A DNA stretch of 64,000 nt from Candidatus Palauibacter sp. (GCF_965213655.1 NZ_CBDBZT010000003.1:3275829-3339828), one strand, 5' to 3'. Numbered from the stretch's first letter, positions 151 through 24,100 are shown. Notes: generated by a model from the letters alone, not told the origin. Translations and numbers: made by a program.

Positions 151-1407
151 CTACCGGACATCTTGCGGCAATCGCCTCACGGTGATGACCGGGACATCAA
201 ACTCGTCCGTGCCGAGGAAAGCTGCCAGACCGTCGGGACCAAAGGCGTCCGGCATTTCGCGCCTCCCGGCGGGGAAGGTTCCGACGTAGCGCCCGTCCGG
301 TGCGAGCACGTCGATGGGACCCGGATCGCTTGCACCCGGCTCCGTGCTCCGCTCGATCCACAGGCTTCCGTCCCACGTGACGCGCACGGCGGCTATCACA
401 GGCACGTCGGCGTGGAACTGCATGTTATCAAGAGCCTCCCGCCGTGTAGACTGAATGCGGCTGATCATCTCCGAGACCTGCGGCGGCGGATCGCCACCGC
501 TCAGGGAGGTAAACGTCCGCTTGCTCTCCCTTTCGAGCCGCCGTTGCCGCTCCGCCCGCTTCAACTCCTCCGTCGCCGGCAGCGGTCGTATTGGTCGGCG
601 TAGGATGCGCGAGACCGCCCCGGAGGCATCGGTGAGCTTGACTGCGTAAGCAGTAGAATCGGAAAACGCGATCCCGCCCGTTGGCAGCGCGTCGAACAGC
701 ACCTCCGGTTCAAATCCCCATTCCGCGTCGGCGAGCGCGGCGAGCACAGTCTCGAAACCCGCACCGTCCGGGAACTCGGTCGTAGCTCGTGGAGCCCAAG
801 CTTCGAACAGCAACCGGTCCTCGACCTCCTCCGAGGACATGTCAATACGGAGGATCGAGCGTTCGTCCCGGCCCAACACCGTCCGAGACCCCGTCCGCTC
901 CGATCGAAGACCCGCACGGATTCCGAAGCCGAATCCTGGACCCGACTCCCGCACCGTGCGTTCGTACCCGCCACCGGGACTGAAGATGTGGTATCCTCTC
1001 ATCATGTCGCCAACCAACGCTCCTCCGTCCTCCCATACGACCAGCTGCGACGCCGTCTGAAACTCGCCCGGACCCTGGCCCGCGCGCCCGAAGTCTCCGA
1101 CATGGCGTCCGGAAGCATCCACGACAACGACCCGCCCTCCGCCCCCCGCGCCCGCCCCGTCCAGCAAGTACAGGTTCCCCACACCGTCGAAGCCGACGCC
1201 TTGGATGGAGGAGAATTCCTCCCATCGGGCCACCGCGTCCGCAGAGCCGACGCGGTACACCGACTCGAACTCCGCCGGGAGCGGAATATCCTCGGCAGGC
1301 AGATCGACAACCTCTTGGGCACGGATGCCTGTAGCTCCCAAAACGGCGACGAGCGCTCCGACCGTTGCCATTCCACCGATAACCAATGGTCCGAGTCTCC
1401 GATGCAT
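151..1407 (-). CDS. Secreted 6-bladed beta-propeller (NHL-like) protein
   Basis: Signal peptide ending IRA-Q; motifs '[11 protein letters not shown]' and C-terminal '[12 protein letters not shown]...[13 protein letters not shown]'. Start set at ATG 1407. Confidence 0.75.
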
Positions 1408-1540
1408 CTTGGCCACGCCTCCACATGGATCAGGTCCCGTCAAGCCCTACAGGGGCCACTGACTATGAAAGTCGTAGATGCATGGGCGCAAGCGATCCCG
1501 GCGGCCCGAATCCGGGGAGGGTGACCGTGCGCGGGGCGTC

Positions 1541-1660
1541 GGGGGTTCCAAGGGGGCCGAGCACCCCCTTGGCCAGAGCCGCGATGTTCAACGTCGCGTC
1601 GGCTGGCTTGCTTGCTTGCTTGCTTGACTACCTAACGGTGTTCGAGCCGGCGGGAACGCC
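1541..1660 (+). other. Conserved noncoding oriT-like motif (copy 1) with a (GCTT)n expansion
   Basis: GGGGGTTCCAAGGGGG..CACCCCC, then CCAG, hairpin GCGATGTT-C-AACGTCGC, then GCTGGCT; homologous to 18053-18108 plus 19449-19490. Confidence 0.5.
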
Positions 1661-1699
1661 GTCCCAAGGCCTACAACGCAGCGGCCTCGAAGGGCTTTG

Positions 1700-1990
1700 T
1701 CAGTTCCGGATGCGCCGCAACGTTGGTCCACTCGAATGCTGAGGCAACTCGAAGGCTCGAATGCCGACTCAACACGCGGCGAGACCTCGACCGGTTCGCC
1801 AGTTCTCGGATTGCCGCACGTTCCCCTGCGGTGTCGCACCTTGAAGGTGCCCGAAACCCCAGGTCCCGATGTGGTCGCCACACCAGCGTTTCGCTCACGG
1901 CGTCGAGGATATGTGACGCAGCAAGTCTCCAACGAGACTTGGTCGGCCTAACGGGGCCTCGCGCTTGGACCGGCGGGTGACCGCTATCGG
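1700..1990 (-). pseudogene. Frameshifted HU/IHF DNA-binding protein remnant
   Basis: 'ILDAVSETLV' in one frame and 'GTFKVRHRR..GNPRTGEPVEVSPR..FEPS' (HU/IHF arm signature) in another. Boundaries approximate. Confidence 0.7.
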
Positions 1991-2373
1991 CGCGGAAAGA
2001 GTGGTTTTGGGGTGATCCACGGCAACCCAGTACCAACTGTCAATGGCGGCCGAAAATGTGACACACCCGGCCGGAGTTGACGAGCCTCGGGGGGTGTATC
2101 GGCCCCATCTTGCGGCGTACGCGGTCGCATCTCGGGATTGACGTGAGTCAACGGCAATTCAGAGCGTTTTGAATTGGTCGGCAGGGCGCAAACGCTAACG
2201 AAACTTGTCCCTCGTCGCCGGAGGCGATGGCAAGACCGTCTTGACGGCGGGTTCGGTATGGTCGAATCTGGCTTCGGAAGTGAACTGCTCGGGTCTAGCG
2301 AGATGCCGACTCGCGATCGTTACGAGAGAGGCTTCTTCACCGTCGACTGTGGGCCAAGGAATTGGAGGGGAAC

Positions 2374-2694
2374 GTGGGAAAGTACATGTTGCGGACAAGC
2401 TACACGCCGTCCGGCTTGAAAGGTCTGATTGCCGAGGGAGGCACTGGGAGGCGTGAGGCCTTGCGCCAAACCGTGGAGAGCATCGGTGGCACGCTGGAGG
2501 GGTTTTACTACGCTCTCGGCGACGACGACCTCTACTTGATCGCCGACCTTCCGGACGAGACAGCAGCCCTGTCATTATCGCTGAACATCGCGGCAGCCGG
2601 GGCCCTTACGGTCGCCGTGACTGTTCTGGTCGACCCGGAGACCGTTGACGAGGCGGTCGCGCGGGGCGTCGCGTATCGCCCACCGGGAGCTTGA
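2374..2694 (+). CDS. GYD domain-containing protein
   Basis: 'SYTPSGLKGL..GG.GRREA....ESIGG.LE.FYYA.G..D' pattern; GGAGG precedes GTG 2374. Confidence 0.85.
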   Translation: MGKYMLRTSYTPSGLKGLIAEGGTGRREALRQTVESIGGTLEGFYYALGDDDLYLIADLPDETAALSLSLNIAAAGALTVAVTVLVDPETVDEAVARGVAYRPPGA

Positions 2695-2975
2695 TGGGCT
2701 CATCCCCTCTTCTGGGGGTCTGGGCAGACCATATTTTGACTCAGTGAGGGTCCGGCTTCCGGGGCTGATCCAGGTTCCGGAAATGTGTGGAAAGAGCGTT
2801 GTGATCGAAGATTCGGCATCGAGGTTCCGTTGTAGCTGAGATAGGTTTCGCCGCGACCTGTGCGACTTGCATCCGCGACCGGGTTACCGGGTGATGGGTC
2901 ATTTTGGAGTAGCTCTTGGGTTGCCTTGGTCGGGGCGTAGGCGGCCCTTTTCGCGTTATTTCGCTTCGGTGCCCG

Positions 2976-4274
2976 TCAGGACCGGTCGGGGACGGGGATG
3001 CCGTAGCGCTCCAGGGTCTGCCGCACCGTCGGGCGGCCGAGGCGGACGCGGTCATCGTCGAGCAGGTAGGAGAACAGGTAGCCCGCGCCCAGCATCAGGA
3101 TCCCGATCAGGAAACAGTACATGACCGCCCGGTCGGGGTAGCTGTCCTTCAGGTATCCGACGTACAGCGGGCCGCAGATGCCGGCTGCCGCCCACGCAGT
3201 CAGGATCGCGCCGTAGACCTTCGACATGTTCCTGGGACCGTACACCTCGAGGATGAACGACGGCATGGTCGCGAACCCGCCGCCGAAGCAGAGCAGCACG
3301 TAGCACACGAGCGCCGAGAACACCCACGGGTTGGACTCGGTCATCAGGACGCCGAACACGACCATCTGGCTCGCGAGCAGCATCCGGAACACCGCCACGC
3401 GCCCCACGCGGTCGGAGAGCCACGCCCACAGGATCCGTCCCAGCCCGTTGCACACGGAACTTGCCGCGATGAGCGTCGCTCCGTACTCCGCAAGCACCGC
3501 TGGTTCGACGCTCGGATCGGCCAGCCCCCACACCTCCTGGAGGAGTTCGGACTGGAAGCTGATGACCGAGATGCCCGCGGCGATGTTGAAGAAGAAGACG
3601 ATCCAGATGATGACGAACTGGCTGGATTTCAGGTACGGGGCCACCTGTGCGGGCTGCTTCCACGGCGCGACCTGGGCGGCGGGGGGGTCGTCGATGACCA
3701 GGCTGCTCGGGATCAGGATGCAGGCGAAGACGATCCCCAGCCACAGGAAGGTCTGCGCAAGGTCCCCCTCCGTCTGCACGACGAGCAGGGGCGCGAGACC
3801 CTTGCTCAGGAGGAGCGCGCCGATGCCGAAGCCCATCACGACGATGCCCGTGACCAGTCCCTTCCGGTCCGGGAACCACTTCGCGGCCGTGGTGACGGGC
3901 GTCACGTACCCCAGTCCGATGCCCATCCCGCCGATGAACCCGTAGCCGAGGTAGAAGAGCAGGATCGAATCCAGCCGCAACGCGACGCTCGCCACGACGT
4001 AGCCACCGGCGAACAGGGTGCTTCCGATGAGGGCGAGACGCCGGGGCCCCACCTTGGGCAGCAGCTGGCCGGCCCAGGCCGCGGCCGTTCCGAGGGAGAA
4101 GATCGCGATGCAGAAGGCCAGCGATCCCTCGGTGAACGTCCAGCCGGCCTGCCGGACAAGAATCGTCTGAAAGAAACTCCAGGCGTACACCGTGCCGAAG
4201 CAGACCTGCAGGACGGTGCAGAAGAAGGCGATCGCGACTCGGGGCGCCTTCCAGCCCTCTGTGGATGAGGCCAC
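2976..4274 (-). CDS. MFS transporter, OFA (oxalate/formate antiporter) family
   Basis: About 12 TM helices; 'GTVYAWS', 'KWFPDRKGLVTG..VMGFG.G', 'NGLGRI.W..LSDRVGR'. Confidence 0.9.
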   Translation of the reverse strand: MASSTEGWKAPRVAIAFFCTVLQVCFGTVYAWSFFQTILVRQAGWTFTEGSLAFCIAIFSLGTAAAWAGQLLPKVGPRRLALIGSTLFAGGYVVASVALRLDSILLFYLGYGFIGGMGIGLGYVTPVTTAAKWFPDRKGLVTGIVVMGFGIGALLLSKGLAPLLVVQTEGDLAQTFLWLGIVFACILIPSSLVIDDPPAAQVAPWKQPAQVAPYLKSSQFVIIWIVFFFNIAAGISVISFQSELLQEVWGLADPSVEPAVLAEYGATLIAASSVCNGLGRILWAWLSDRVGRVAVFRMLLASQMVVFGVLMTESNPWVFSALVCYVLLCFGGGFATMPSFILEVYGPRNMSKVYGAILTAWAAAGICGPLYVGYLKDSYPDRAVMYCFLIGILMLGAGYLFSYLLDDDRVRLGRPTVRQTLERYGIPVPDRS

Positions 4275-4275
4275 G

Positions 4276-5016
4276 TCAGTCCGCTCCCGGCGCCGTCTCG
4301 CCCTTCACGGCGTGCAGCATGAGGCGGGCCATCTCCCCGATCTCGTCATCGCGCGCCAGCACCTTCGCATCGGTCGCCGCGGCTTCGTCGCGGCGCGCCA
4401 GCGTCACCACGTAGGAGAGCAGATCCTCCAGCGGCGTGACGGCGAGCCTCACGAACCAGATCGAGCCCAGGATGCCGACGATGAGAATGATGCAGATGAG
4501 GTATATCTGCTGCCCGGTGGCCCGCTGGATCTTCAGCCGCACGAGGTCCAGGTCCATCCCCACATGCACCGTGCCGGCCTGGCCAGCCAGGATCGGGCTC
4601 CCGACCTCGACGAAATCGCCCATCCCCGGCAGGCTGCGCTCGATCGGCTCGGTGGCGTGCGGGTCGCCCTCGCGGATCACGTCCGGGACGCCCGGCACGA
4701 ACGTGTGGGTCAGGATCTCGCCGGTGTCGCTCGTGATGTAGATGTACCGGATGCTCTGGATCTCGACGAACTGGTCGATGAGCGACTGCAGCGTCGCGAG
4801 GTTGCGGTTGAGGAGGATGTCGACGCTGGAGTCGGCGATGTTCTTGGCGATGTTCGCGCTGTTGCTCTCGTACTCCTCCGACAGCTGGCTGGAGACCGTG
4901 CGGATCGAAAGGGCGGAGGTGGAGAAGACGATCGCCCCGAAGAGGACGAAAATGCCGAAGCGCGTCCTCCGAAAGAGCTTCTTGATCCGGATCTCGTTTG
5001 ATTCCGGCTGGTTCAC
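4276..5016 (-). CDS. Membrane sensor-like protein (TM, periplasmic domain, TM, HAMP) with no output domain
   Basis: Two hydrophobic segments; 'PLEDL...RDDEIGEMAR' HAMP motif; protein ends about 15 aa later. Confidence 0.75.
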   Translation of the reverse strand: MNQPESNEIRIKKLFRRTRFGIFVLFGAIVFSTSALSIRTVSSQLSEEYESNSANIAKNIADSSVDILLNRNLATLQSLIDQFVEIQSIRYIYITSDTGEILTHTFVPGVPDVIREGDPHATEPIERSLPGMGDFVEVGSPILAGQAGTVHVGMDLDLVRLKIQRATGQQIYLICIILIVGILGSIWFVRLAVTPLEDLLSYVVTLARRDEAAATDAKVLARDDEIGEMARLMLHAVKGETAPGAD

Positions 5017-6458
5017 GAGGCCCCGTCGCTCGTCGCGTTCAGGCCGAACTTGGCTTCCCAGTCGTTGAGGGTGACGAAGCGGCCGTCCTCCACGACGGTG
5101 TGGTAGACGCTCTGGAGGCCCTGTCGTCGATCGGGCCCGAACGAGACCATTTCGCCGATCCCCAGATCATAGTTCCGCACCGAGAACACCGCGTCGTTCA
5201 GCTTGCCGCGCTCCGGTGTGCCGTCAATCCGACGCAGGATTTCCGTCAGCAGCTTCGCATCCAGGTATCCCTCGAGGCTCGTGAAGCTGTACGGGAACGG
5301 GTCGTACGGTTCCACCACCAGCTCTTCCGGCACCTGTGGATCGTAGCGGTCCATCAGGTCCCGGTACTCGGGCACGGACGGAATCGTCGTGTCCTCGTAA
5401 CTGGGCACGACCTGCGAGTTCACGAGCCACGGCGTGTAATGGGCCGGGTCGTCGCGGCTGGCCTCCACGAGAAGGGAGAGCAGGTTCTCGCTCCCCACGA
5501 AGGAGAGGTTCGCGATGGGCACGTGCAGACCCAGATCCATCGCGTCGCGGGCGAAGGCGGCGCAGGCGGCGTACGCGCCCACGCAGATGACCGCATCGGG
5601 CTCGGCCTCCTGCAGGATCTCGACCTGCGGCCGCATGATGCTCGTGAACTGCGTGCCTCGCCTGTAGGTGGCCTCGCCTGCAATCGTCTCCCCGTGCCGT
5701 GCCAGCGCCGCCCTCACGCCGGCCCAGCCGCTGCGCCCGTAGGCGTCGGCCTGGTAAAAGACGGCGATGCGCCGCCGCCCGATGCGGACGAAGTTGTCGA
5801 CGAGACCGGCCGTCTCCTGGCCATAGGAGGCGCGCAGGTTGAACGCGAACTCCCCGTACGGCGCTTCCCGCTGCGGCTGGGCGCCCGTGAACGGAAAGAA
5901 GATGTACATCTGCTGGTCCTGGAACTTCTTCAGCAGCGGCAGGACGCGGGTGACGGTCGGCGTGCCGACGTAGCCGAACAGCAGAAAGACTTCGTCCTCC
6001 AGCATCAGCTTGAGCGTGTTCTCCACGCACGGATCGGGCTGATAACCGTCGTCGTAGAGCTTGAGGGTGATTCGCCGCCCGTTGACGCCGCCCTGTTCGT
6101 TCACTTGGCCGAAGCAGGCCATGGCGCCGCGGTAGAGTTCGGTGCCCAGTCCTCGCGAGGGCCCGGAGAAGGCCGCGGACACGCCAAGGAGGATCTCGTC
6201 GTCAGGCTGCGCGCGGCTCCTTCCGCTCCAGCGCAGGCCGGGAGCGAGCGGTCGGGAGGGGGCGCCGAGAGAGGCGTTGAGCGATGCCGCGAAGGGCGCG
6301 CCGAGCAGACCGGCGAGACCGGCGCGGATCGCGGAGCGGCGCGTCAGGAGCCCGCCGGACGGAGGGCCCTCAGAGTCCGGGGATCGAGAAGAAGACCGCA
6401 CACCACGAACTCCCCCGGTTAGGTCGATTTGATTGAGGCTGTCGCTTACGCCCGACAT
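5013..6458 (-). CDS. Tat-exported periplasmic binding protein (LivJ-like, type I fold)
   Basis: 'TRRSAIRAGL' twin-Arg; 'GVSAAFSGP', 'NEQGGVNGRRI..YDDGYQP', 'GYVGTPT'. Confidence 0.85.
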   Translation of the reverse strand: MSGVSDSLNQIDLTGGVRGVRSSSRSPDSEGPPSGGLLTRRSAIRAGLAGLLGAPFAASLNASLGAPSRPLAPGLRWSGRSRAQPDDEILLGVSAAFSGPSRGLGTELYRGAMACFGQVNEQGGVNGRRITLKLYDDGYQPDPCVENTLKLMLEDEVFLLFGYVGTPTVTRVLPLLKKFQDQQMYIFFPFTGAQPQREAPYGEFAFNLRASYGQETAGLVDNFVRIGRRRIAVFYQADAYGRSGWAGVRAALARHGETIAGEATYRRGTQFTSIMRPQVEILQEAEPDAVICVGAYAACAAFARDAMDLGLHVPIANLSFVGSENLLSLLVEASRDDPAHYTPWLVNSQVVPSYEDTTIPSVPEYRDLMDRYDPQVPEELVVEPYDPFPYSFTSLEGYLDAKLLTEILRRIDGTPERGKLNDAVFSVRNYDLGIGEMVSFGPDRRQGLQSVYHTVVEDGRFVTLNDWEAKFGLNATSDGAS

Positions 6459-6569
6459 GCCTAGACCTCCGTTTCGATCATCGACCGATCCGACCAATAG
6501 TCGAAGTCTATCACAAGCAGACATAGATTCAAAGCACGGCGGCACCGGTCTGCCGAACTTGACCGGCGA

Positions 6570-7625
6570 TCAGAAGAAGGCGAACGCTTGGACTTTCAGG
6601 GACCAGTCGGAATGATCGCCGGACGTGTAGAAATCCACGTTGGTGGAGATCCCGTTCCGGCCCACGAAGTAGACCATCACGCCCGGGGTCACGACCGTAC
6701 CCGTGACCTTGTCGGGATCTTCGGCACCCGAGTCGACCCAGCTAACCCGGACCATCGGCTCGACCGCCGCGAAGTGTGACTCGGGCGCCAAGGGGAAATA
6801 CCAGAAAGCCATGAGCTGAAGGGCCGAGAACTTCGCGTCGTCGTCCAGCTTCCAATTGCGGCCCTGCAGGGCGTTGACCATGAGATGGGGACCGTCGAGC
6901 CAGGTCCCGATCTCCACCTCGGCCCCGTAGGCCGGCACGCCCATCGTCTCGCCATGCGAATCCAGCGTCTCGTCCAGGGCCAAGTAGGCCGACACTCGGC
7001 TGCCGGCGGCCGGGAACACCGAGAAGCGACCGGAGGCGGACTTGCCGCGGTTCACGTCCCTGTAGCCGATTCCCTCACCGTTGGTGAGTGTGAACCGGTA
7101 TCCGAAACGCTCCCCGAAGCGACCCTGCGCGAGGATGCCCGGCTCGTAGTTGTCCAGCCCCAATGCGCCGGTCAGACGACCAAAGGAGCACACGCTGCCC
7201 ACACCGGGGCAGTGATCGACGCCGGTGACCCGAGCGTCGCGCTCGATGATCGGGAGCCAAGCGTTCGGCACGAGCCAGAACTCCGAAATCCCCTTCTTGA
7301 ACTGGCCCAGCTGTACCTGCAGCGCTTCGCTCGCCGTAAGTTCGAGGTAGGCCTCTAGCACCGTCGACCCGTCGATATCGTACTGCGCGCGTGCCGCCAC
7401 CAGATCGTTCAGCCGCCCGTCCATCGTCACCCACGCACGGCGGATGAAGAACGATGAGGGCGTGTCGTCGACGCTCGATGCCTCGAACTGAGCTTGGATC
7501 CTGGCGCCGATGGTGACGCTGGACCCGCCGCGTGCCCCAATTTCCTGTGCGTTCAGGGGCCCGGCGATCACAAGTGCCAGTCCCAAGCCGACTACGGCTG
7601 CCACTCCGCTGAAAGGTATGCTCAT
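6570..7625 (-). CDS. Outer membrane porin, OprO/OprP-like
   Basis: Signal peptide; 'GARIQAQF', 'FFIRRA', 'LEAY', 'GQFK'; terminal Phe. Confidence 0.75.
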   Translation of the reverse strand: MSIPFSGVAAVVGLGLALVIAGPLNAQEIGARGGSSVTIGARIQAQFEASSVDDTPSSFFIRRAWVTMDGRLNDLVAARAQYDIDGSTVLEAYLELTASEALQVQLGQFKKGISEFWLVPNAWLPIIERDARVTGVDHCPGVGSVCSFGRLTGALGLDNYEPGILAQGRFGERFGYRFTLTNGEGIGYRDVNRGKSASGRFSVFPAAGSRVSAYLALDETLDSHGETMGVPAYGAEVEIGTWLDGPHLMVNALQGRNWKLDDDAKFSALQLMAFWYFPLAPESHFAAVEPMVRVSWVDSGAEDPDKVTGTVVTPGVMVYFVGRNGISTNVDFYTSGDHSDWSLKVQAFAFF

Positions 7626-8040
7626 GTGGATCTGCCCTCTCGAAGAAGGTCCCGGGCGGCCCGGTCACGGTCGAAGATAGCTGCCTCTGGCCAGACCGCC
7701 AGCGCCGTTCTCTTGCGCAGTACCAAAGGGGGATCCCGAAGACCGACAGTTTGGAGAGGCGAAGCCCGAACCTCCGAAGCGTGGGGACCACAAGCGCGAG
7801 CCGGTGCCTATCGCAGTCAGCTTCCCAGCCACAGAAAGGGTTGGGCCAGATGGGGACCGAATTGTGCTTCCTTATGCTCCATGTCGAGAGCAGGGTCCAA
7901 CCAGATGTAGACCTCAATCGGGGGACGGAAGAGCCTGCACCTCTGTTCGATTTGAGCGTCGGTCTCGCGACGGGACGCCTTTGATCGTTGCCAAGAACGC
8001 TGTTTCGTACCCCCCTTGTCCGTACCTGTCCGGTTTGCGT

Positions 8041-9234: not shown

Positions 9235-9466
9235 TGCTCTTGGTTACCGTCTCATCTGTTGTCCCACGGTACGTCCCACAGCGTGTTCAAGAATACCCGG
9301 AACATCACGGGATGTCAAGGGACGGCATGGCGGATGTAACATTTTTGGGGAAAGGGATTTAGGACACGTTACGGGATCAGCATGGACTGCACGGGAATGG
9401 CGGGGAGGCGGACACCCCCTCCGCCTGGAAGTAGGAGAGTGTGGGGCGAAACTCCGGTTGAGGCGT

Positions 9467-9615
9467 GACTCGAAAGAGTCTCGTGGGTTCGAACCGAGCG
9501 ACCGAAGGGAGCGAGCTCGGCGAGCTGCGGAGCGGTGAAGCCAACCGAGCGACCAACGGAAGCGAGCTCGGCGAACCCTGCGAAGCAGGGAGAGCCCATT
9601 CCCACCCCCTCCGCC
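9467..9615 (+). repeat. tRNA-3'-derived repeat with two palindromic cassettes in the T-loop
   Basis: GACTC-GAAA-GAGTC (variable arm-like), TCGTGGGTTCGAA, [cassettes 9494-9544 and 9545-9599], TCCCACCCCCTCCGCC. Confidence 0.75.
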
Positions 9616-9625: not shown

Positions 9626-9653
9626 CCTCCGGCACACCCGGAGGCGTTTTTTT
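9626..9653 (+). terminator. Intrinsic terminator-like hairpin
   Basis: CCTCCGG-cacac-CCGGAGG followed by CG and T7. Confidence 0.5.
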
Positions 9654-9741
9654 GGACGGGTGGCCGAGCGGACTAAGGCGCACGCCTGGAGAGCGTGTGG
9701 GCAGCAACCCTGCCTCGTGGGTTCGAATCCCACCCCGTCCG
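9654..9741 (+). tRNA. tRNA-Ser(GGA)
   Basis: Acceptor GGACGGG/CCCGTCC; anticodon arm CACGC-CT-GGA-GA-GCGTG; long variable arm; GGGTTCGAATCCC; CCA not encoded. Confidence 0.97.
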
Positions 9742-9773
9742 TCCAGGCAGTTCCACGAGGCAGGGCCGAAACG

Positions 9774-9851
9774 CCTGCCCTCGTGGGTTCGAACCGAGCG
9801 ACCAGCGGGAGCGAGCTCGGGGAGCGTAGCGACCCAATCCCACCCCGTCCG
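9774..9851 (+). repeat. tRNA-Ser(GGA) 3'-end copy with a 44-nt T-loop cassette
   Basis: CCTGCCCTCGTGGGTTCGAA [9794-9837] TCCCACCCCGTCCG matches the adjacent tRNA 3' end. Confidence 0.8.
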
Positions 9852-10033: not shown

Positions 10034-10034
10034 C

Positions 10035-13900: not shown

Positions 13901-16429
13901 ATGGGGAAGCGGAAAACGGGCATGGCGGGTTCGGAAACTGGCCCCTCTCGGGGCGGGTTGACGGCGGGACATACCATTCTATCCGCGGATTGCGCGGACT
14001 ACGCAGTCGAAGCCAGGCGCAGGACGGACACGTCGCCAGGCCGCGCGCTTCGCATCTCTTCTCAAGTCGCTGCAATTCTTCTGGCGTTCGCGAGTCTTGC
14101 CGCGGGCACTGCCCCCACTGCCGCGGCGCAGGAAGCGCCCCAGCGAGCGGATGCGAGCGGCTTCAATCCCGACGGCACCCCTTCGGTCCTCACCAACGCG
14201 AATCCCGAGACTGCCCGGCGCGCGGAACTGGCCCCCGCCGTGCGCGGCAACACGCTGGAACGGAATCCTCCCCCGACGGGGCATCTGATTGTCGGCGGCT
14301 ATGGCACCAGATCCTGGACCGACTCCCTCCGCGTGAACGCGTCGCTCAACGTCAGCACCGACAGCATCCGGGACGCCGACGGACTCGATCACGTGGAGTG
14401 GGAATACCAGTGGATTCGGGTGACCACGGGCGGTGGCGAGACCAACATCGCCGAGGCGACTCGAAGCTGGTACTACGTATCGGAGAGCGATCTCGGCCAC
14501 CGCCTGAAGGTACGGGTCACCTTCCAGGACGATGAGGGGAACTGGGAGCGGATCGATAGCGAACTCTCAGCGATCGTGGACGTGATGACGACGGAGGAGC
14601 ACGCCCTCATCTCGCTGGAGGCCGACAAGGACACGGTGGAGGTTGGCCAGTGGGTCAACTTCACGATCCGGCGGCGCGGCGAGATGCAACAGCAGATCCG
14701 GGGCGACATCAACGTCCAGGGCCTCCGGTCGGACATCGAGGACTGGTATCTGTACGCCTACGTCTTCCGTGGGCAGGCGACCCGGAACTGGAATCTGCAG
14801 GTGGAAGCGGAACCCGGTGGCGTCCACACGCCGGGCCGGACGATCACGGCCCTGCTGCGTGGCGTATTCGAGGACTTCGCGCTCGTAGACACGACGGCCG
14901 TGACGGTCGTCGTGGTGCCGGCGGGCACCCGTAACCGCGGCGACGTGGGCCCGCCGGACGCGCAGAGCGCCACGGTCGATGCCTCGACCCTTGTCATCTG
15001 GTACGACGAGACGCTGGGCTCCGGCTCGAACCCTCCGGCGAGCGCCTACAGCGTCAGTATCAACAGCGGAAGCGGCATGAACCCGACCGCCGTCGAAGTA
15101 GCCGGACGCACGGTGACGCTGACGCTGGGCACACCCGCGGCGTACGGCGACCAGGTGACCGTGAGCTACACGGCGCCCAATACCGGCGCGGTGCAGGACG
15201 AGGCGCAGAACGATGCGGGCGACCTCACGAACTACCCGGTGACGAACAACACCGCGGCGCCGACCCCGACCATAGATGCGCCCGCGACGCTCAGTCTCAA
15301 CGAGGATGTCGGCACATACAGCTTCAGCGTCTCGCTCTCCCGGTCGATCAACCAGAGCGTGACCGTCGGCGTCGCCGCTCAAGCAGGTACAGCGACTGCC
15401 AGCGACGACTTCCAGGTTTCTTCGGGTACGCTGACGATACCCGCCGGCCAGACTTCCTCCGATACGCACACGATCACGATCGACGACGACGACATCGACG
15501 AGGGGAGCGAGACCTTCAGCCTCGTCTTGAGCAGCCCATCGTCGGGCGCCACGCTCGGCAACAGCACGACGACGGTGACAATCACCGACGATGATACCCG
15601 AGGCCTCTTCCCCAGTCCGAGGTCGGTCACGGTCCCGGAGGACGGAACGGAGACCTACACGGTGGTGCTTGAGTCGGAGCCGACATCAACGGTGACGGTG
15701 ACGGCATCACGGTCGGGGGATGCCGACATCACCGTGGCCCGCGGGGCATCGCTGGAGTTCACCACGGGCAACTGGTACGTCCCGCAAACAGTGGAACTGA
15801 GTGCGGCTGCGGACGCGGACAGCGTCGATGGGACCGCGACGATCACGCACACGGCCTCCGGCGGCGACTACGGTAGTAACAACGTCAGCGCGACCGTGGC
15901 GGCGACGGAGGGTGATACCAGCGACGACGGCGAGAACAACAACAACAACAACAACACGGGGCACTCGGTCTCGACAGGCGTGACCCTGAGCTTGGGCCCC
16001 TCCGGGGTCGGCGAATCGGAAGGCCAGCGGACAGTGACCGTAACAGGCCGACTCAACGGGGACGCCATGGAGTCGGCGAAAACGATCTCCGTGAGCGTGG
16101 GCGCCGGCGGCGACGGCGCCGTTTCGGGAACGGACTATACGACATCGGGCGGCTTCAGCTTCGAGATTCCGGGTGGACAGACGGAGGGAAGCGGGACGTT
16201 CACGATCACCGCGACCGACGATGATGTCGACGAGGGGAACGAGACCATCACCGTGTCGGGGGTGGTATCCGGGCTGGATGTCACCCCGGCCACGCTGAGG
16301 ATCGTCGACGACGATACCCGCGGCCTCTTCCCGAGCCCCGGGTCGGTCACCGTGCCGGAGGAAGGAACGCAGTCGTACACGCTGGTGCTGGAGTCGGAGC
16401 CCACGGCCGCGGTCACGGTGAAGGTGTGA
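13901..16429 (+). CDS. N-terminal part of a giant surface adhesin/autotransporter (SwmB, Calx-beta and Ig-like repeats), interrupted
   Basis: Signal peptide 'AAILLAFASLAAG..AAAQ'; SwmB-like and Calx-beta ('DDDIDEGSETFSLVLSSP') units; stops mid-repeat right after the att core. Start uncertain. Confidence 0.8.
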   Translation: MGKRKTGMAGSETGPSRGGLTAGHTILSADCADYAVEARRRTDTSPGRALRISSQVAAILLAFASLAAGTAPTAAAQEAPQRADASGFNPDGTPSVLTNANPETARRAELAPAVRGNTLERNPPPTGHLIVGGYGTRSWTDSLRVNASLNVSTDSIRDADGLDHVEWEYQWIRVTTGGGETNIAEATRSWYYVSESDLGHRLKVRVTFQDDEGNWERIDSELSAIVDVMTTEEHALISLEADKDTVEVGQWVNFTIRRRGEMQQQIRGDINVQGLRSDIEDWYLYAYVFRGQATRNWNLQVEAEPGGVHTPGRTITALLRGVFEDFALVDTTAVTVVVVPAGTRNRGDVGPPDAQSATVDASTLVIWYDETLGSGSNPPASAYSVSINSGSGMNPTAVEVAGRTVTLTLGTPAAYGDQVTVSYTAPNTGAVQDEAQNDAGDLTNYPVTNNTAAPTPTIDAPATLSLNEDVGTYSFSVSLSRSINQSVTVGVAAQAGTATASDDFQVSSGTLTIPAGQTSSDTHTITIDDDDIDEGSETFSLVLSSPSSGATLGNSTTTVTITDDDTRGLFPSPRSVTVPEDGTETYTVVLESEPTSTVTVTASRSGDADITVARGASLEFTTGNWYVPQTVELSAAADADSVDGTATITHTASGGDYGSNNVSATVAATEGDTSDDGENNNNNNNTGHSVSTGVTLSLGPSGVGESEGQRTVTVTGRLNGDAMESAKTISVSVGAGGDGAVSGTDYTTSGGFSFEIPGGQTEGSGTFTITATDDDVDEGNETITVSGVVSGLDVTPATLRIVDDDTRGLFPSPGSVTVPEEGTQSYTLVLESEPTAAVTVKV

Positions 16430-16649
16430 TGTGATTCATAAACCGCTGTCGTACAAACACTTACAGAGTCAGCTATCAAGCGGTTACCTCATTTTGTCCC
16501 TCTTCTCGGACGGGAATCCAATCGACCCCATCGGAGGTCCGTGGACCCCGTGACGATGAGTCCCGCAGATCCCGCAGACCGCCGATTGTGGACCACGAGC
16601 CGGGACGGCCGACCCCGTTGGGCTACGTTCCTGGGCGTCCCCATGCGCC

Positions 16650-17879
16650 TTATCGTCGGGCGGGCTGCCGTTCGAGTCGCCACACGTCAACGTGGTCCAA
16701 GTCCATTTCGTCTGTGCGGATTGTCGCGAGATGATCTCCCCGGAAAACGGGGACGGTTCGCTCCTTGTACGGGACGGCGGGAACGCTGCCGAGCAGCCTG
16801 CCTTCGGGATCGAAGAACTCCCAGCGGTTGCCGGCGGTGCGGATGACCTCGACCCACAACTTGCCGTCGGGGGACACGAAGATCTCGTTGATGAACGACT
16901 TCCGGTCTGGTCGGCTGTAGTTCCGGGGGTTGCAGGAACCGTCCGGCCACCGCTCCATGGCTTCATCGAACTCTGCACTTCCGGCCGCCCATTCCTCGTC
17001 CGAGATGGGTTCCGGCGGCAGTGTACGCTCGATTACCCGCAGGGTGTCGCTCTCGCCCTGCGTGAGGGCAATCCGGTAGAAATAGCCCCAAGCCGAATAC
17101 GCGAATCCACCGGAGGCCGGGTGCTGCAAGAGTTTTGCCGCAGTCGTGTTTGGATAGACGCCGATCCGCCCGTCCCAAGTGCAGAGAATCGGCTCGACCT
17201 GCCCAGGAAGAGCGCTTGGAACAGACAGGAAGGAAACGGTGTCGCCTGTGTCGCCGCTGCTGTCGAGGCCCACCCACTGCGCGCCGTCATCAGGATCGAA
17301 CGCGAAGCGGAAGACCTCGTTCTCACCGACGGGGAAGAACCGAATGAATGCAGCCGAACCGGTCAGGCCTCCCGAGGTCCTTCTTTGCCCGAGCCACTCG
17401 CCGTCAACGGAAAACTCGCCGATGCGCCCCTGGCCGGGATCGAAGGTCACGAGCCGGTCCCCGGCCCACGCCAAGGAATAGAGGCTCCTGAACTCACCCG
17501 GCCCTTGGCCCTCCCGACCAAAGGTGCGCACATGCGCCCCGTCGAAACCGAAGACGCGGACTTCGAGGTTGGTGTTGTCGGCAACGAATACGGTCTGGCC
17601 GGGACCCAGGGCGACGGAGCTGACCGAACCGAACTCGTCGGGAGTCACCTGTTCCGTCAGCGATTTGGGTCCGATCGAGACGACCGGGGCAAGTCGCCAT
17701 CCGGGTGGCGTGCCGGTGTTGGCGACGTGGACGACGCTGCCCAGAGTATCGAAGGTGGTGGAGAGATCGCTCCGGCCGGGAGTGGAGTTCCCCTGATCGC
17801 AGGCCGCTGCCAAGGTCAGCGCGAGTAGGAGCAGAACCTTGGAGGTGGAGATACGAAGCGGATGCGGGGGCATGACCAT
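16650..17879 (-). CDS. 6-bladed beta-propeller lipoprotein (element cargo)
   Basis: Lipobox 'LAAAC'; 'FGREGQGPGEF'; C-terminal 'DEMDLDHVDVWRL'. Confidence 0.8.
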   Translation of the reverse strand: MVMPPHPLRISTSKVLLLLALTLAAACDQGNSTPGRSDLSTTFDTLGSVVHVANTGTPPGWRLAPVVSIGPKSLTEQVTPDEFGSVSSVALGPGQTVFVADNTNLEVRVFGFDGAHVRTFGREGQGPGEFRSLYSLAWAGDRLVTFDPGQGRIGEFSVDGEWLGQRRTSGGLTGSAAFIRFFPVGENEVFRFAFDPDDGAQWVGLDSSGDTGDTVSFLSVPSALPGQVEPILCTWDGRIGVYPNTTAAKLLQHPASGGFAYSAWGYFYRIALTQGESDTLRVIERTLPPEPISDEEWAAGSAEFDEAMERWPDGSCNPRNYSRPDRKSFINEIFVSPDGKLWVEVIRTAGNRWEFFDPEGRLLGSVPAVPYKERTVPVFRGDHLATIRTDEMDLDHVDVWRLERQPARR

Positions 17880-18108
17880 TCTTGGCACGATGATGGTGAA
17901 GGAAGGCACACCCAAAGGTTGGCTGGCGCCCCGGTCCCTGCAAGGACTGGTCGGCAACAAGAGGCGGATGTGGGCGACGTGGCGGCAAGCAGCCATCATG
18001 GCGCTATGGGCCGGGAAAGCTTCGTCGCCGCGACTTCGCGGCAACGATTTCAGGGGGGTTCGAAGGGGGGGCGGAGCCACCCCCTCGCCAGCCGCAGGTG
18101 TTCAACAC

Positions 18109-19439
18109 GGGAGTGTGCTGATTTCTGTGTAAATGGCCATGGAGTAGACTCTGGAAGCGGGAGGAGACCATGGCGAGGAAGAAGGATGCGACGGAGCGGG
18201 AGGTAGACGAGCTTCTCGACAGCCTGCTGGAGGGCCGCAGCCCGGAAGAGATCATGGGCGGAGGCGGTCTTCTGGAGGCGCTGACGAAGCGGGTGGTGGA
18301 GCGGGCGCTGGAGGGAGAGCTCACCGACCACCTGGGCTACGAGAAGCACGCGAGAGAGGGCCGCAACGGCGGCAACTCGCGCAACGGCCGTACGCGGAAG
18401 CGAGTGAAGACGGACACGTCGGAGTTCGAGATCGAGGTGCCTCGGGACCGTGATTCGACGTTCGACCCGAAGTTCGTCAGGAAGGGCCAGCGTCGGCTGG
18501 GCGGGTTCGACGAGAAGGTGATCGCGCTGTACGCGCGGGGCATGACGACGCGGGAGATCCAGGGTCACCTGAAGGAGCTGTACAAGGTGGAGGTCTCACC
18601 GTCGCTGATCTCGGCGGTGACCGACGCGGTCCTGGAGGACGTGAAGGCGTGGCAGGGCCGGCCGTTGGATACGGTGTACCCGATCGTGTATCTGGACGCG
18701 ATCCACGTGAAGGTGCGTTCCCGGGGCCACGTCCGGACGCACGCGGTCTACCTTGCCCTGGCCCTGACGCTCGAGGGCAACAAGGAGCTGTTGGGGCTGT
18801 GGGTGGGCGAAGCGGAGGGGGCGAAGTTCTGGCTCTCGGTCCTCACCGAACTCAAGAACCGGGGGGTCGAGGACATCCTGATCGCAGCGATCGACGGCCT
18901 CAAGGGCTTTCCCGAGGCGATCGAGTCGGTGTTCCCGAAGACGCAGGTCCAGCTCTGCATCGTGCATCTGGTGCGCGGCTCGCTCCGGTTCGTCGCCTGG
19001 AAGGAGCGCAAGGCGGTCGCCAGGGACTTGCGGGCCATCTACAGGGCTCCGAGCCTGGAGGCGGCCGAGACGGCGCTGGAGGCCTTTTCTCAGCGCTGGG
19101 ACGAGCGCTTCCCCATGATCAGCCGGAAGTGGCGGGCGAACTGGGCGAACCTGACCCCGTTCTTCGATTATCCGCCCGAGATCCGCAAGGTCATGTACAC
19201 GACGAACGCGATCGAGGCCCTGAACGCGCAGCTCACGAAGGTGACGAGGAAGCGCGGCGCGTTCCCAACCCCGGAGGCGGTCAGGAAAGTGCTGTACCTT
19301 GCGATCGAGAGGGCGTCACAGCGCTGGACCCGGCCCGTTCAGGACTGGACCGGCGCCCTGAACCACCTGTCGATCGTGTTCGAGGGCCGAGTGCCCGTAT
19401 GAGTGCGAGGGCCATTTACACAGAAAATCTGACAGTCCC
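18109..19439 (+). mobile_element. IS256-family insertion sequence, 1331 bp
   Basis: Terminal IRs GGGAGTGTGCTGATTTCTGTGTAAATGGCC / GGCCATTTACACAGAAAATCTGACAGTCCC; 9-bp TSD GTTCAACAC at 18100-18108 and 19440-19448. Confidence 0.95.
18170..19402 (+). CDS. IS256-family transposase
   Basis: 'NSRNG', 'VPRDR..F.P', 'YLDA', 'DGLKG', 'QLCIVH', 'YTTNAIE'. Confidence 0.97.
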   Translation: MARKKDATEREVDELLDSLLEGRSPEEIMGGGGLLEALTKRVVERALEGELTDHLGYEKHAREGRNGGNSRNGRTRKRVKTDTSEFEIEVPRDRDSTFDPKFVRKGQRRLGGFDEKVIALYARGMTTREIQGHLKELYKVEVSPSLISAVTDAVLEDVKAWQGRPLDTVYPIVYLDAIHVKVRSRGHVRTHAVYLALALTLEGNKELLGLWVGEAEGAKFWLSVLTELKNRGVEDILIAAIDGLKGFPEAIESVFPKTQVQLCIVHLVRGSLRFVAWKERKAVARDLRAIYRAPSLEAAETALEAFSQRWDERFPMISRKWRANWANLTPFFDYPPEIRKVMYTTNAIEALNAQLTKVTRKRGAFPTPEAVRKVLYLAIERASQRWTRPVQDWTGALNHLSIVFEGRVPV

Positions 19440-19775
19440 GTTCAACACTGCGTGTGCTGGCTGACGACCACTAAGGGTCGTGAGCCAGCCCCCTGCGGAC
19501 GCCTTAGAAACGCCGCTCCGGGCATCGCCCGAAACAGCTTCGGCCGGGCCGTCGCGGGCCAGGCTGCCGGCCTCTTGGTCGAGCGCCTCACGGGCGATGA
19601 GGACGAGTCCGTTCCCCGTGGGGATGGCGGCACTCTCTGCCGCCCGCCGCGTTCTGCTCTACCGTATCCCCTCGGGGACCCGAGATCGTCGCCCTCAGGC
19701 GATGCCACGGCCCGTAGATTCCCCGAAATGCCCTCATCCACCCGGAACCTGCATCTGAGTCTGTCGCGGAGGTGT

Positions 19776-20999: not shown

Positions 21000-21154
21000 T
21001 ACCTCATAATATGTGGGATCGGATCGGACGTCAAGGAACGTGGCGAGAGGACAACAAGCGAGTATGTGTGACATAAACGCTTGTAAAACAACGATATACT
21101 ACACTTAGCCGAACGCCCTTGGACGTTACTGGATTTGACTAGACTACAGTCACG

Positions 21155-24100
21155 GTGACGGCGAGACGCACAGGGGACTCGGACATCACGGTGACGGAGG
21201 GTGCGTCGCTCACGTTCACGCCGAACGACTGGTACCGGCCACAAACGGTGACCTTGAGTGCCGCGGCGGACGTAGACGGTAGCGATGGCACGGCTACGAT
21301 CACCCACAGCGCAGCTGGTGGTGACTACGGCGCCAACAACGTCAGCGCGACGGTCACCGCGACGGAAGACGACGACGGCAGCAGCGGAGGCGGAGGAGGA
21401 GGCGGCGGCGGGGGCGGCGGGTCGTCCTCGTCGATCGTATCACTCAGCGTGAACCCGTACCGCATAGGAGAGGGGGACGGCCCCACTTCGGTGACCGTGA
21501 CGGGCAGCCTCGACGACGGGACGCAGGACTCGCCGACGACGGTGACCGTCAGCATCGGCGCGGCTGGCGACGGCGCGACACCGGGGTCCGACTACGAAGT
21601 CGTGAACGACTTCACGCTTGAAATCCCGGCAGGCCAGACGAGCGGCAGCACGACGTTCACGTTCACGCCGATCAACGACGGCATCATCGAACGGAGCGAG
21701 ACGGTCCGCGTATCCGGAACGGGCTCCGGGGTGAGAGTCAACTTCGCCACGTTGGTCATCGTTGACGACGACGCGCGCGGACTCCTTCCGAGTCGCCGCG
21801 TTGTGGAGGTACCGGAAGGCGCAACGGCGACCTACACGCTCGTGCTGGAGTCGGAGCCCACGGCCCCGGTGACGGTGACCGCCGCGCGGAGCGGCGACGA
21901 GGACATCACGGTGAGCGAAGGCGCTATGCTGACGTTCACGGCCGACAACTGGGATCTGCCACAGACGGTGACGCTGAGCGCGGCGCACGACGAAGACGAC
22001 GAAGACGGCACGGCGACGATCACGCACACGGCCTCCGGCGGCGACTACGACGGCATCACGGCATCCGTGCGGGCCATCGAGAAGGACAGGATGCAGGCCT
22101 CGACGAAGGTGACCCTGAGCCTGAGCCCGTCCGAAGTGGGCGAGGCCGACGGTCAGAAGACGGTGACGGTGACGGGCGCGCTCGATCGCGGGCCGCTGGA
22201 ATCTGCGACAACCGTGTCGGTCGTCGTGGGCGCGGCCGGCGACGCCGCCGAAGAAGGGGTCGACTACGGCGAGGTGGCCGACTTCACGTTCGAGATCGCG
22301 GCCGGGATCACGAGCGGGAGCGGAACATTCAGCATCGAACCGACGGACGACGACTACGCGGAAGGCGACGAGTCGGTCACCGTGTCGGGTTCGGCGACGG
22401 GACTGACGGTCGACGGCGCCACGCTCACGATCGTGGACGACGACCGGCGTGGCCTCTTCCCCAGCCCGCGGACCGTGCTGGTACCGGAGGGTGAGACGGC
22501 GACGTACACCCTGGTCCTGGAATCGAAGCCGACGTCCACCGTGACGGTGACGGCCGCGCGGACCGGCGACGAGGACATCACGGTGAGCGGAGGCGAGACG
22601 CTGACGTTCACGGTCGACGACTGGTATGTCCCGCAAACCGTGACACTGAGCGCTGCCCACGACGATGACGACGAGGACGGTACGGCGACGATCACGCACA
22701 CGGCCTCCGGTGGCGACTACGACGGCGTCACTGCGGCTGTCAATGCGATTGAGGTGGACGACGAGGGCGCCTGGACGCTGGAGTTCCGCTCGAACGGCTC
22801 CACCGTGAACTCCGTTGCGGAAGCCGTCGGGACGGTGGAGATCGTCGCGACGCGCGGCCAGGCCCCGTCCGAGCCGCTGGTCGTCACGCTTTCCGGTGAA
22901 GGCTCCGCCGAGAGCGGATCCGACTGGCAGCTCGAGACCACCACGATCACCCTCGCGGCGGGCGCCACCGAGACGACGGGCGAAATGACGATCCTCGACG
23001 ACGCCCGCCTCGAGGACTCGGAGTCCGTGACGGTGCGCGCCAGCGTGGACAGGAGTGAGGTCGCCTCCGGAGCCCTTGAGATTCTCGACGACGATCGGGC
23101 CACGATCGCGCTCGTTACCGAGACCCCGACCGTCGAGGAAGGAAGCTCGGTGACGGTGTCCGTCCTCGTGGAGCCGACGGGTGCCGGGTGCGTCATCCCC
23201 TTCGACCTCATGCCGTCGATCCTGGTCGAAGACGGCGGCGGCGCGGTGTCGTCCACGGTTCCGACGGCCGTGATGATCCCGGCGTGCGAGTCGGTGGCCA
23301 CCTTCAGCTTCGACACGGACGATGATGAGGAACCGGCGGGCGATCGCCTCGTGGTGTTCACCGCCGAGGTGAGTGAAGACGATCGAATCTCGGGTGGGAC
23401 GCTGACCGTCAGGGTCACCGACAACGACAACTCGCCGGCGGAAGGGGCCCCGACGATCACGGGCATTCCGCAGGTCGACGAAACCCTCACGGCGCATACG
23501 GATGGGATCAGCGACGCCGACGGCCTGACGCAGGTCGCGTGGCGGTACCAGTGGCTCCTCGTCTCGGGCGATTCGGAGGCCGAGATCGCAGGCGCCACGG
23601 AGCGGACCTACGTCGTGCGAGAGGAGGACGTCGGGAGCCGGCTCAAGGTGCGGGTGGACTTCGAGGACGACGCCGGCAACGACGAGAGCCTCATGAGCGC
23701 GCCGACGGATGAGGTCCGGCCGGCACCAGTCACCCCGGTGGTGACGATCACGGCGCTCACGGCTACGGTCACCGAGGGCGAACCGGCGCGCTTCACCGTT
23801 CGAGCCGAGCCGAGCCCGGAGAGCGCGATCACCGCGATCGTCCATGTGGCCGGGACCAACGACATCCTCGCCGGCACGCCGAGTCCCTCCGTGACGATAG
23901 AGGCCGGGCAGGACAGCGCCGTCCTGGCCGTGGAGACCCGGGACGACGATGTGGACGAAGGTGTCGTGGCCGGGGCGGTCACCGCGGAGGTCCTTGCCGG
24001 ACCGGGGTACGAAATCGGGACACCCTCTACCGCGGTCGTGACGGTACAGGACAACGATGAGGTCGTGTCGCTCGACCTGACCGGGTGGCTGGCGCGGGTC

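Follow-up and report, generated by a model that had tools for sequence, protein, structure and literature searches.

Two integrase-bearing elements and their targets

The stretch analysed here, referred to as the window, comprises 64,000 nucleotides of a Candidatus Palauibacter sp. genome of 3.84 Mb and 68% GC (G000, contig C3, positions 3275829-3339828). It holds two elements with an integrase gene, each associated with a gene for a secreted six-bladed beta-propeller and with a noncoding motif that resembles an origin of transfer (oriT): element 1, whose right end adjoins tRNA-Ser genes, and element 2, which interrupts an adhesin gene. The features of positions 1-25500 were mapped from an open reading frame (ORF) listing, Pfam and ARAGORN and are collected in Table 1; extracted loci carry L-numbers. 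A preliminary description of this DNA had proposed that both elements follow one blueprint of propeller, motif and integrase, and that they belong to a family of non-autonomous mobilizable elements which spread propeller genes. The analysis suggests that they are probably reduced, relaxase-less members of a genus-wide integrative mobilizable family that have kept integrase and oriT and depend on siblings to move, and that the propeller is not a standard part of the blueprint.

The two minus-strand integrases had been assigned to one subfamily, and this holds: they are intact ORFs that share 47% identity over 387 residues (E 3e-109) and the domains Arm-DNA-bind_3, Phage_int_M and Phage_integrase, the residues of the boxes noted earlier align, and both match NCBIfam NF007246 at scores under its cut-off. 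Every P4-type integrase paralogue found in the genome has a motif copy nearby. The targets differ between types. For the element 1 type it may be a tRNA 3' end, with tRNA-Ser 3' repeats at copies 1 and 2 and none seen at copy 3, for the element 2 type a palindrome in coding sequence and not a tRNA gene, and the i1163-type integrases are sited in leucine-rich-repeat (LRR) genes. Two complete sibling elements (L001 and L002; C3 1163310 and 1176712) lie 13 kb apart, each within LRR coding sequence, which makes this a third target class and again a repeat-protein gene.

Element 2 (16422-21148, 4.7 kb) is a clean insertion in the adhesin gene, bounded by attachment (att) sites. A 10-bp direct repeat flanks it (16412-16421 and 21149-21158), the repeat period of the adhesin (720/672 nt) is offset by exactly 4737 nt, and removal of 4737 bp (3 x 1579) leaves one stop-free ORF of 2302 aa. 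The element consists of an arm, propeller 2, the oriT-like motif, an insertion sequence (IS), integrase 2 and a second arm, and propeller 2 is its only cargo. A sister integrase, int2b, 95% identical to integrase 2 (C3 1245111-1246397; L005), lies inside an Ig/cadherin-repeat gene in an element with arms homologous to those of element 2, a similar repeat and its own motif, the cargo being a MauG-type peroxidase and no propeller. Given that a third element of this type, L053 in another species, abuts the same kind of palindrome, which is thus present at all three insertions examined (window, L005 and L053), the target of the type appears to be the short palindrome GTSACSGTGAC, encoding V-T-V-T strands in repeat proteins.

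Loci in four other species are colinear with propeller 2 together with its upstream region, motif flank and integrase remnants. The propellers at these loci share 80-83% identity with propeller 2 and 95-96% with each other, which suggests that the propeller 2-type cassette has recently spread by horizontal transfer. The IS is of the IS256 family and lies precisely within the hairpin 2 loop of the motif, with a 9-bp target duplication, and the presence of at least 20 near-identical copies in the genome indicates that it is or was very active. Since the candidate oriT of element 2 is split by the IS, it is probably now disabled and the element immobile. A contig from a different sample has the IS-free motif, with 18097 joined to 19440 at a depth of 52.6.

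Element 1 is a 7.9-kb unit, at about 1541-9427, with three genomic copies: window positions 1541-9435 recur at C3 3187762-3195659 (copy 2, 99.4%) and, inverted, at 2357761-2365826 (copy 3, 97.6%). It had previously been drawn as a single unit of 151-9234, but propeller 1 lies outside the repeated block. Between copies 1 and 2 there are zero differences from ~1606 to ~8540 (~6.9 kb), yet ~20 differences fall in ~58 nt of the hairpins, including a compensated exchange of the inner stem in hairpin 2, and stop at an invariant CTGGCT; further patches of difference lie in the 5' half of the integrase gene. The inner stem of hairpin 2 also varies, always in a compensated manner, among other element copies with identical neighbouring kilobases (in addition to window 1541-1600 compared with C3 3187762-3187820, these are L055-L057 and L051/L063), and that of copy 1 is, bar one base, the variant of the relaxase-encoding i1163-type elements.

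All three copies share one end, a 12-nt sequence equal to the 3' end of the tRNA-Ser(GCT) and tRNA-Ser(TGA) genes, at which homology stops. Copy 1 adjoins a decayed 3' half of tRNA-Ser(GCT), copy 2 a 3' half of tRNA-Ser(TGA), each with an insert in the T-loop, and intact tRNA-Ser genes are found on the same strand 21 kb (GCT, copy 1) and 18.5 kb (TGA, copy 2) away; the intact tRNA-Ser(GCT) gene is at C3 3264282-3264368, 11.5 kb left of the window. The displaced 3' halves and the distant intact genes indicate that composite tRNA-Ser islands have copies 1 and 2 at their far ends. Of the two targets named in the preliminary description, a tRNA and an adhesin coding sequence, the latter stands, with its 10-bp repeat and restored reading frame; the attachment scar of element 1 is the displaced tRNA-Ser(GCT) 3' half at ~9431-9614 and not the tRNA-Ser(GGA) gene at 9653. 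When the left end of element 1 was searched for a direct repeat and the flanks of the motif for tRNA-like sequence, only weak similarities between hairpin 1 and the right-end repeat emerged.

Other structures were noted at these islands. A type I-C CRISPR-Cas locus (cas3, cas5d, csd1, cas1, cas2 and an array by tRNA-Ser(GCT)) lies left of the window at C3 3264554-3273230 (L007), and, as it stands between the tRNA-Ser(GCT) gene and the displaced 3' half, it may be island-borne. Units resembling the 3' part of tRNA-Ser (T stem, TTCGAA, T stem, acceptor strand) carry a two-hairpin insert of 55-127 nt directly after TTCGAA; three of 86-87 nt come after tRNA-Ser(CGA), and blastn finds such units only at these tRNA-Ser loci. 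They are possibly att-site scars or a tiny element that targets the T-loop. Hairpin 1 of the oriT-like motif looks like these units, with a 13-nt insert.

Table 1. Features of window positions 1-25500, with related units and sites elsewhere on contig C3 (window coordinates unless a locus or contig is given)
Feature	Position	Strand	Basis or remark
Propeller 1	151-1407/1443	-	ORF, family hidden Markov model (HMM)
oriT-like motif, element 1	1535-1624	+	Covariance model; hairpin 1, hairpin 2, octamer CTGGCTTG at 1593-1600
Truncated HU/IHF-like (Bac_DNA_binding) frame	1588-1932		Directly 3' of the element 1 motif
Element 1 body	1597-9427	.	Repeated in three genomic copies
GYD protein	2362-2694	+	Pfam
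MFS transporter	2976-4274	-	Pfam
sCache protein	4276-5016	-	Pfam
Periplasmic binding protein	5013-6545	-	Pfam
Porin O/P	6570-7625	-	Pfam
Integrase 1, P4/CP4-57-type architecture	8041-9234	-	Pfam
Right end of element 1, 12-nt repeat	9413-9424	+	tRNA-Ser(GCT)/tRNA-Ser(TGA) 3' end
Displaced decayed tRNA-Ser(GCT) copy	9431-9614	+	Variable arm, T arm, acceptor 3' strand; ~127-nt T-loop insert
3'-tRNA-Ser-like units	9431-9614, 9776-9853, 10035-10301; C3 3195671-3195793		Tandem or solo
tRNA-Ser(GGA)	9653-9745		ARAGORN
tRNA-Ser(CGA)	9952-10034		ARAGORN
queC, NAPRTase gene, other housekeeping genes	Between tRNA genes and adhesin		
Adhesin 5' part, Calx-beta/SWM-repeat	13853-16421 (ORF to 16429)	+	Left 10-bp repeat 16412-16421
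Integrase-distal arm, element 2	16422-16649	.	Homologous to left arm of int2b element (L005)
Propeller 2	16650-17879/18080	-	Pfam, HMM; cargo of element 2
Motif left part, element 2	18048-18108	+	Hairpin 1 and 5' half of hairpin 2; cut by IS
IS256-family element	18109-19439	+	Transposase 18170-19402; target duplication 18100-18108 / 19440-19448
Motif right part, element 2	19440-19475	+	3' half of hairpin 2; octamer CTGGCTGA at 19457-19464
Integrase 2	19776-21074	-	Pfam
Integrase-proximal arm, element 2, and right direct repeat	21075-21158	.	Repeat 21149-21158, within palindromic target 21149-21159
Adhesin 3' part	21159-25498 (ORF from 21155)	+	
Second repeated-element family, example sites	L003:7913-9142; C3 2000498, 2045009, 3122424		

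The shared motif as a candidate transfer origin

The two places in the window match over 45 of 56 bases (blastn), and a blastn search followed by a covariance model built from 11 copies identified 18 copies of the motif in the genome. The model gives 75.6 bits to the element 1 copy and 47.8 bits to the IS-split copy of element 2, and the same model fits copies linked to a relaxase gene. This bears out the shared noncoding motif of the preliminary description, in which the IS that splits the element 2 copy had gone unnoticed. The motif consists of two hairpins and then CTGGCT. Pairing in the hairpins is kept in 97% of cells compared with 36-54% in slid controls; cells with a compensated double change number 122 against 41 in shuffles, with 0 of 500 shuffles reaching 122, and 8 base pairs across the two helices show compensatory changes. 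Of 78 distinct copies, 71 have CTGGCT after hairpin 2 and 16 have the complete octamer. For comparison, the oriT of ColE1 has CTGGCTTA, which contains the nick site, and relaxases of the MOB_HEN type are described as having mobC directly upstream and inverted repeats at a set distance (PMC5703827).

The genes around the motif follow a fixed order. At six loci of the genome this is integrase, small ORF, AlpA (PF05930), motif, NikA-like/MobC protein (PF21983, PF05713) and MobA/VirD2-type relaxase (PF03432). Among 35 other genomes of the genus, 22 contain the motif according to the covariance model, at 1-33 copies each; ~170 copies were listed or counted in relatives, and 28 solo loci and 20 further regions were looked at. 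The 1.5-kb flanks of the 29 best-scoring loci were compared (28 from other genomes and one from this genome, L043 being excluded as a duplicate of a locus in G000). On the hairpin side mobC is present at 17 of 29 and then the relaxase at 11 of 29, and on the opposite side alpA at 12 and integrase at 10, in each case at fixed distances; four of the best-scoring loci gave no flank match. The sibling relaxase matches the NCBIfam model of MbeA, the ColE1 relaxase, over its full length (E 2.2e-33), and an MbeD/MobD-like piece lies after the relaxase at L001:9308-9565. Given this flanking by mobC and an MbeA-like relaxase, the CTGGCT core and the covarying hairpins, the motif is read as an oriT of the ColE1/MOB_HEN type, with nicking predicted at the core and the integrase side leading. 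The oriT-like character proposed in the preliminary description is thereby upheld, with the motif placed between alpA and mobC/nikA plus relaxase and a core like that of ColE1, CTGGCT(TA), 3' of covarying inverted repeats.

This assignment has to be weighed against a role in RNA. The motif might act as a terminator or as a cis-regulatory RNA, serving either the integrase-alpA operon or the gene downstream, with no part in DNA transfer; its two hairpins are stable and GC-rich, its position is always between int-alpA on the upstream side and the next gene, and covariation cannot separate DNA from RNA hairpins. However, no U-tract follows the hairpins, where instead the invariant single-stranded CTGGCT corresponds to the nick core of ColE1, the linkage to mobC and an MbeA-like relaxase is strict (17 of 29 loci), and the motif is retained in elements that lack both flanking operons. 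Nor does it match an Rfam family: a scan of window 1-26000 at E up to 1 returned two tRNAs and two sub-threshold matches near them, and none at the motif. A purely RNA-level function is therefore regarded as very improbable. A stretch similar to the HU/IHF-like frame at 1588-1932 is also found 3' of the motif in loci L055-L057 of relatives.

Probable reduced members of a mobilizable family

HMMs built from the genome's own genes (E up to 0.01) found no alpA, mobC or relaxase in the 64-kb window, a Pfam scan of its ORFs agreed, and the window elements have no relaxase, coupling-protein or pore genes; ORFs 19442-19741 of element 2 and 7817-8086 of element 1 had no Pfam match. Elsewhere in the genome there are 13 matches to the relaxase domain PF03432, six of them linked to the motif, and 10 matches to TraG-D_C (PF12696) of TraG/TraD-type coupling proteins. 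The Pfam models for VirB4 (PF03135) and VirD4 (PF02534) have no match in the genome, AAA_10 (PF12846) has one, under its cut-off, and no conjugation pore was found. The absence of a visible relaxase, noted earlier, extends to the full window, and of the relaxase and type IV secretion system that were to be looked for elsewhere, relaxases and coupling proteins are present whereas VirB4 and VirD4 are not detected. As to the family of non-autonomous mobilizable elements, the oriT-like motif, the missing mobilization genes and the potential helpers in the genome are in keeping with it.

It is suggested that the full blueprint of the family comprises a P4-type tyrosine integrase, a small ORF, an AlpA-type excisionase, an oriT, a MobC/NikA-type protein, an MbeA-like relaxase and cargo. 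The oriT would present two inverted repeats, forming hairpins on the transferred strand, and then the nick core CTGG/CTT, with the integrase side entering the recipient first. The window elements would have lost alpA, mobC and relaxase and kept integrase and oriT, and owing to this loss would move only with help in trans: siblings would supply excisionase and relaxase, and a conjugative element would presumably supply the coupling protein and pore. Element 2 would have entered the GTSACSGTGAC palindrome in an adhesin repeat by site-specific recombination, its oriT being split later by insertion of the IS256-family element. Element 1, with cargo of porin, binding-protein, sensor and transporter genes, would form the far end of the composite tRNA-Ser(GCT) island, with propeller 1 as a neighbour on the hairpin side rather than as cargo. 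The hairpin side of the oriT is a variable slot, holding mobC and relaxase in complete elements and a propeller, a MauG-type peroxidase or a PadR regulator in reduced ones.

Several observations weigh against this proposal. Excision, nicking and transfer are predicted from the sequence, and each of the window octamers, CTGGCTTG and CTGGCTGA, is one base off the CTGGCTTA of ColE1. The window has no match for an AlpA-type excisionase, whereas described relaxase-less islands encode their own, and the VirB4 and VirD4 models, as stated, are empty. The left end of element 1 lacks a clear direct repeat, only the repeat on the integrase side being clear. For element 2, the contigs of the likely source sample bridge both junctions, and no empty-site joint is listed in contigs of four runs, from which rare variants are dropped. 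In addition, simple decay of a mobilizable element does not explain why otherwise identical copies differ sharply in their hairpins, and inverted pairs of the motif around propellers are not predicted by the model.

Seven of the 18 motif copies in the genome have a propeller gene no more than 500 bp away on their hairpin side, compared with 3.2% of random sites (binomial P ~8e-7), and only one of the 18 has a propeller on the other side; as these seven copies represent only five loci, the binomial test overstates the enrichment. Propellers are thus enriched beside the motif, in support of the proposed link. The claim that the elements spread propellers survives in part: propeller 2 is att-bounded cargo, with relatives of 80-83% identity in four species, but propeller 1 lies outside element 1 and the int2b element carries a peroxidase instead.

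Propeller 1 is located between two inverted copies of the motif, the left one lying beyond the window at C3 3275684-3275771, and at every copy of element 1 such a second motif lies 1.4-1.7 kb off in inverted orientation, the two enclosing a propeller (3 of 3 pairs). The enclosed propeller is degraded at copy 2; copies 1 and 3 have it intact, that of copy 3 being flipped. In relatives, 18 inverted pairs were picked by arrangement and not by content from ~104 listed copies that were not in the earlier set. One or two propellers, in either orientation, are enclosed by 12 of the 18, which reduce to about six independent cassette types, and in many pairs the propeller lies ~55 bp from its stop codon, or ~200 bp from its start codon, to the motif edge. 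The other six hold remnants of mobC and relaxase (L050), a PadR regulator (L053), content homologous to L053 (L051, L058 and L066) or give no match (L065). Integrases lie 0.3-2.6 kb outside the pairs at 11 loci. Identical outer flanks are joined to unrelated cassettes, and identity breaks at the invariant CTGGCT or within hairpin 2, where changes are compensated; within a pair the motifs are ~76% alike and the outer flanks unrelated. An inverted duplication or transposon ends were considered for these pairs and rejected, as no second long inverted repeat extends beyond the motif and the members are only ~76% alike. Integron cassettes were likewise rejected, because the sites are inverted and not direct and there is no IntI, the integrases being of P4 type.

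The inverted pairs and the break of identity at the nick core could reflect recombination at oriT or a convergent pile-up of elements. This raises the possibility that the motif, besides or instead of acting as an oriT, is a recombination site that doubles as the boundary of a slot for exchangeable or invertible cassettes of 1.2-3.2 kb, usually with one secreted propeller, an HUH relaxase or tyrosine integrase swapping or flipping them at the nick core and so reassorting surface propeller genes among elements and genomes. Pairs that face each other with their hairpins at all three element 1 copies and at 18 places in relatives are in line with this, as are the propellers found in either orientation against the same conserved outer flank (L055 and L057 compared with L056), the unrelated cassettes joined to identical outer flanks (L055, L056 and L057; L063 compared with L051), the ~6.9 kb of identity between copies 1 and 2 that gives way to differing hairpins, and the occurrence of one cassette at 94-95% nucleotide identity in four species. 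Were it so, it would constitute a natural exchange system for secreted propellers in Gemmatimonadota and would explain element bodies of 100% identity with different hairpins and different propellers. Nevertheless, a check for inversion did not reveal any cassette present in both orientations within one and the same pair of flanks, the 5' end of the propeller 2-type cassette always adjoins the same type of flank, the few independent cassette types, the six pairs without a propeller and the limited likeness of paired motifs all count against it, and two convergent insertions could simply produce such pairs. An exchangeable slot is thus considered unlikely.

Alternatively, the adjacency of propeller and motif may be a by-product of elements piling up at tRNA-Ser and repeat-protein genes in regions rich in propellers. 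Consistent with this, the triplicated unit does not include propeller 1, the two tRNA-Ser islands are composite and contain several motifs, several propellers, IS copies and even the type I-C CRISPR-Cas locus, the propeller family spans ~100 kb of the genome, and the int2b element lacks a propeller. Accumulation by itself does not account for the position of propeller 2 within the att-bounded 4.7 kb of element 2, for the one-sidedness of the enrichment (7 of 18 against 1 of 18, with 3.2% expected by chance), for the stereotyped spacing to the motif edge or for the recurrence of the same cassette and motif in four species, and a mere by-product is accordingly judged quite improbable. The preferred interpretation remains that of reduced elements with a candidate oriT, which would be mobilized by their siblings.

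Such elements, lacking alpA, mobC and relaxase, resemble the relaxase-less mobilizable genomic islands (PMC5704250). These have a tyrosine integrase of their own, variable cargo, no genes for conjugation and an oriT akin to the one in relaxase-encoding elements that share their cells, and they depend on helper elements to move; for the elements described here mobilization is predicted from sequence. Those islands are reported there as 18-33 kb in size, from Gammaproteobacteria, with their own excisionase and an oriT copied from an integrative and conjugative element (ICE), whereas the present elements measure 4.7 and 7.9 kb, belong to Gemmatimonadota, lack an excisionase and would draw a helper relaxase from sibling mobilizable elements rather than from an ICE. 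The mobilization module resembles that of ColE1/MOB_HEN (mbeA relaxase, mbeC/mobC accessory gene and oriT with CTGGCTTA; PMC5703827, PMC5935869): the siblings have a full-length MbeA match, a MobC/NikA-type gene beside the oriT-like motif, an MbeD/MobD-like piece and inverted repeats at CTGGCT(TA). It differs in that it lies on the chromosome, linked to a P4-type integrase and AlpA, and not on a small plasmid, in having two hairpins, of which the first is like a tRNA T arm, and an octamer that varies at positions 7-8, and in the window copies being without mobilization genes altogether.

The IME_oriT elements (IME, integrative mobilizable element) of Firmicutes integrate into the oriT of ICEs (PMC7563843) and offer a precedent for an element end at the oriT of another and for the use of a host element as helper by elements nested in it or next to it; they have their own Rep_Trans-type relaxase and MobT-type oriT targets, whereas the left end of element 1 merely coincides with the motif. 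P4/CP4-57-type islands at tRNA genes are known for tandem accretion and for decayed, cis-mobilizable remnants (PMC5704250), and the integrase architecture, the tRNA 3' end repeated at island ends and the composites with several remnants are alike here. In contrast, the el2-type integrases use palindromes in Ig-like/Calx-beta repeat genes and the i1163-type integrases LRR-repeat genes, and the displaced tRNA halves bear T-loop inserts.

Systematic searches for relaxase-less mobilizable islands are described as rare, with the known cases mostly from Proteobacteria (PMC5704250). The present analysis defines such a family in Gemmatimonadota and provides a workable model of its oriT, which detects 1-33 copies in each of 22 genomes among the 35 others of the genus. 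The analysis also adds P4-type integrases that appear to target palindromes in adhesin repeat genes, where insertion and excision would switch the 2302-aa adhesin off and on. The inverted pairs of the oriT-like motif around propellers, with identity breaking exactly at the nick core, are recurrent, and no standard model of conjugative mobilization predicts them.

The propeller family and other repeated sequences

Propellers 1 and 2 are only 24% identical (E 5e-8), but both are NHL-type six-bladed beta-propellers of one large family. An HMM made from the genome's own paralogues matches propeller 1 (E 1e-141) and propeller 2 (E 3e-98), and a profile of 16 family members matches solved NHL six-bladed propellers in the PDB (E 2.8e-46). 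An AlphaFold model of propeller 2, with a predicted local distance difference test (pLDDT) score of 74.5, has its best matches among NHL domains (template modelling (TM) score per target 0.58-0.67) and also matches the exported protein 4raa of B. fragilis. Propeller 2 matches PF17170 (DUF5128) at 24.6 bits, with a cut-off of 22.9, and propeller 1 has no Pfam match. The N-terminus of propeller 2 resembles a lipoprotein signal peptide on inspection of the translation by eye. The minus-strand propeller ORFs of the preliminary description are thus corroborated at both places by the family HMM, with the PDB profile supporting the fold for the family and the AlphaFold model that of propeller 2.

The family HMM finds 82 ORF pieces in the genome, corresponding to about 65-80 loci and ~100 kb. 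Given that only ~5 of these loci touch the motif, the elements cannot be the main cause of the expansion of the family, and the largest group consists simply of more than 10 genes in tandem (C3 2292129-2307351); the idea that the elements explain this expansion is corrected in this respect, as they do not account for most of it. Among 40 relatives the best orthologue of propeller 1 is only 64% identical, so that no empty-site comparison is available. Three further weak members of the family lie at window 41065-46190 with no motif near. Window 20-344, comprising the 3' end of propeller 1 and downstream sequence, recurs at C3 370053-370376 (325 bp, 99.4%) beside another IS256 copy, and this repeat is a fragment of a second copy of propeller 1. 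ARAGORN calls an 88-nt tRNA-Arg(ccg) inside propeller coding sequence at C3 2373715-2373802 and 3182973-3183060; these calls are probably spurious, or else reflect a structured stretch that is conserved towards the 5' end in some propeller genes.

Finally, the genome contains at least 20 full or partial copies of a second, unrelated family of repeated elements, with a tyrosine recombinase of 409-418 aa and a higher-scoring PF03432 relaxase.

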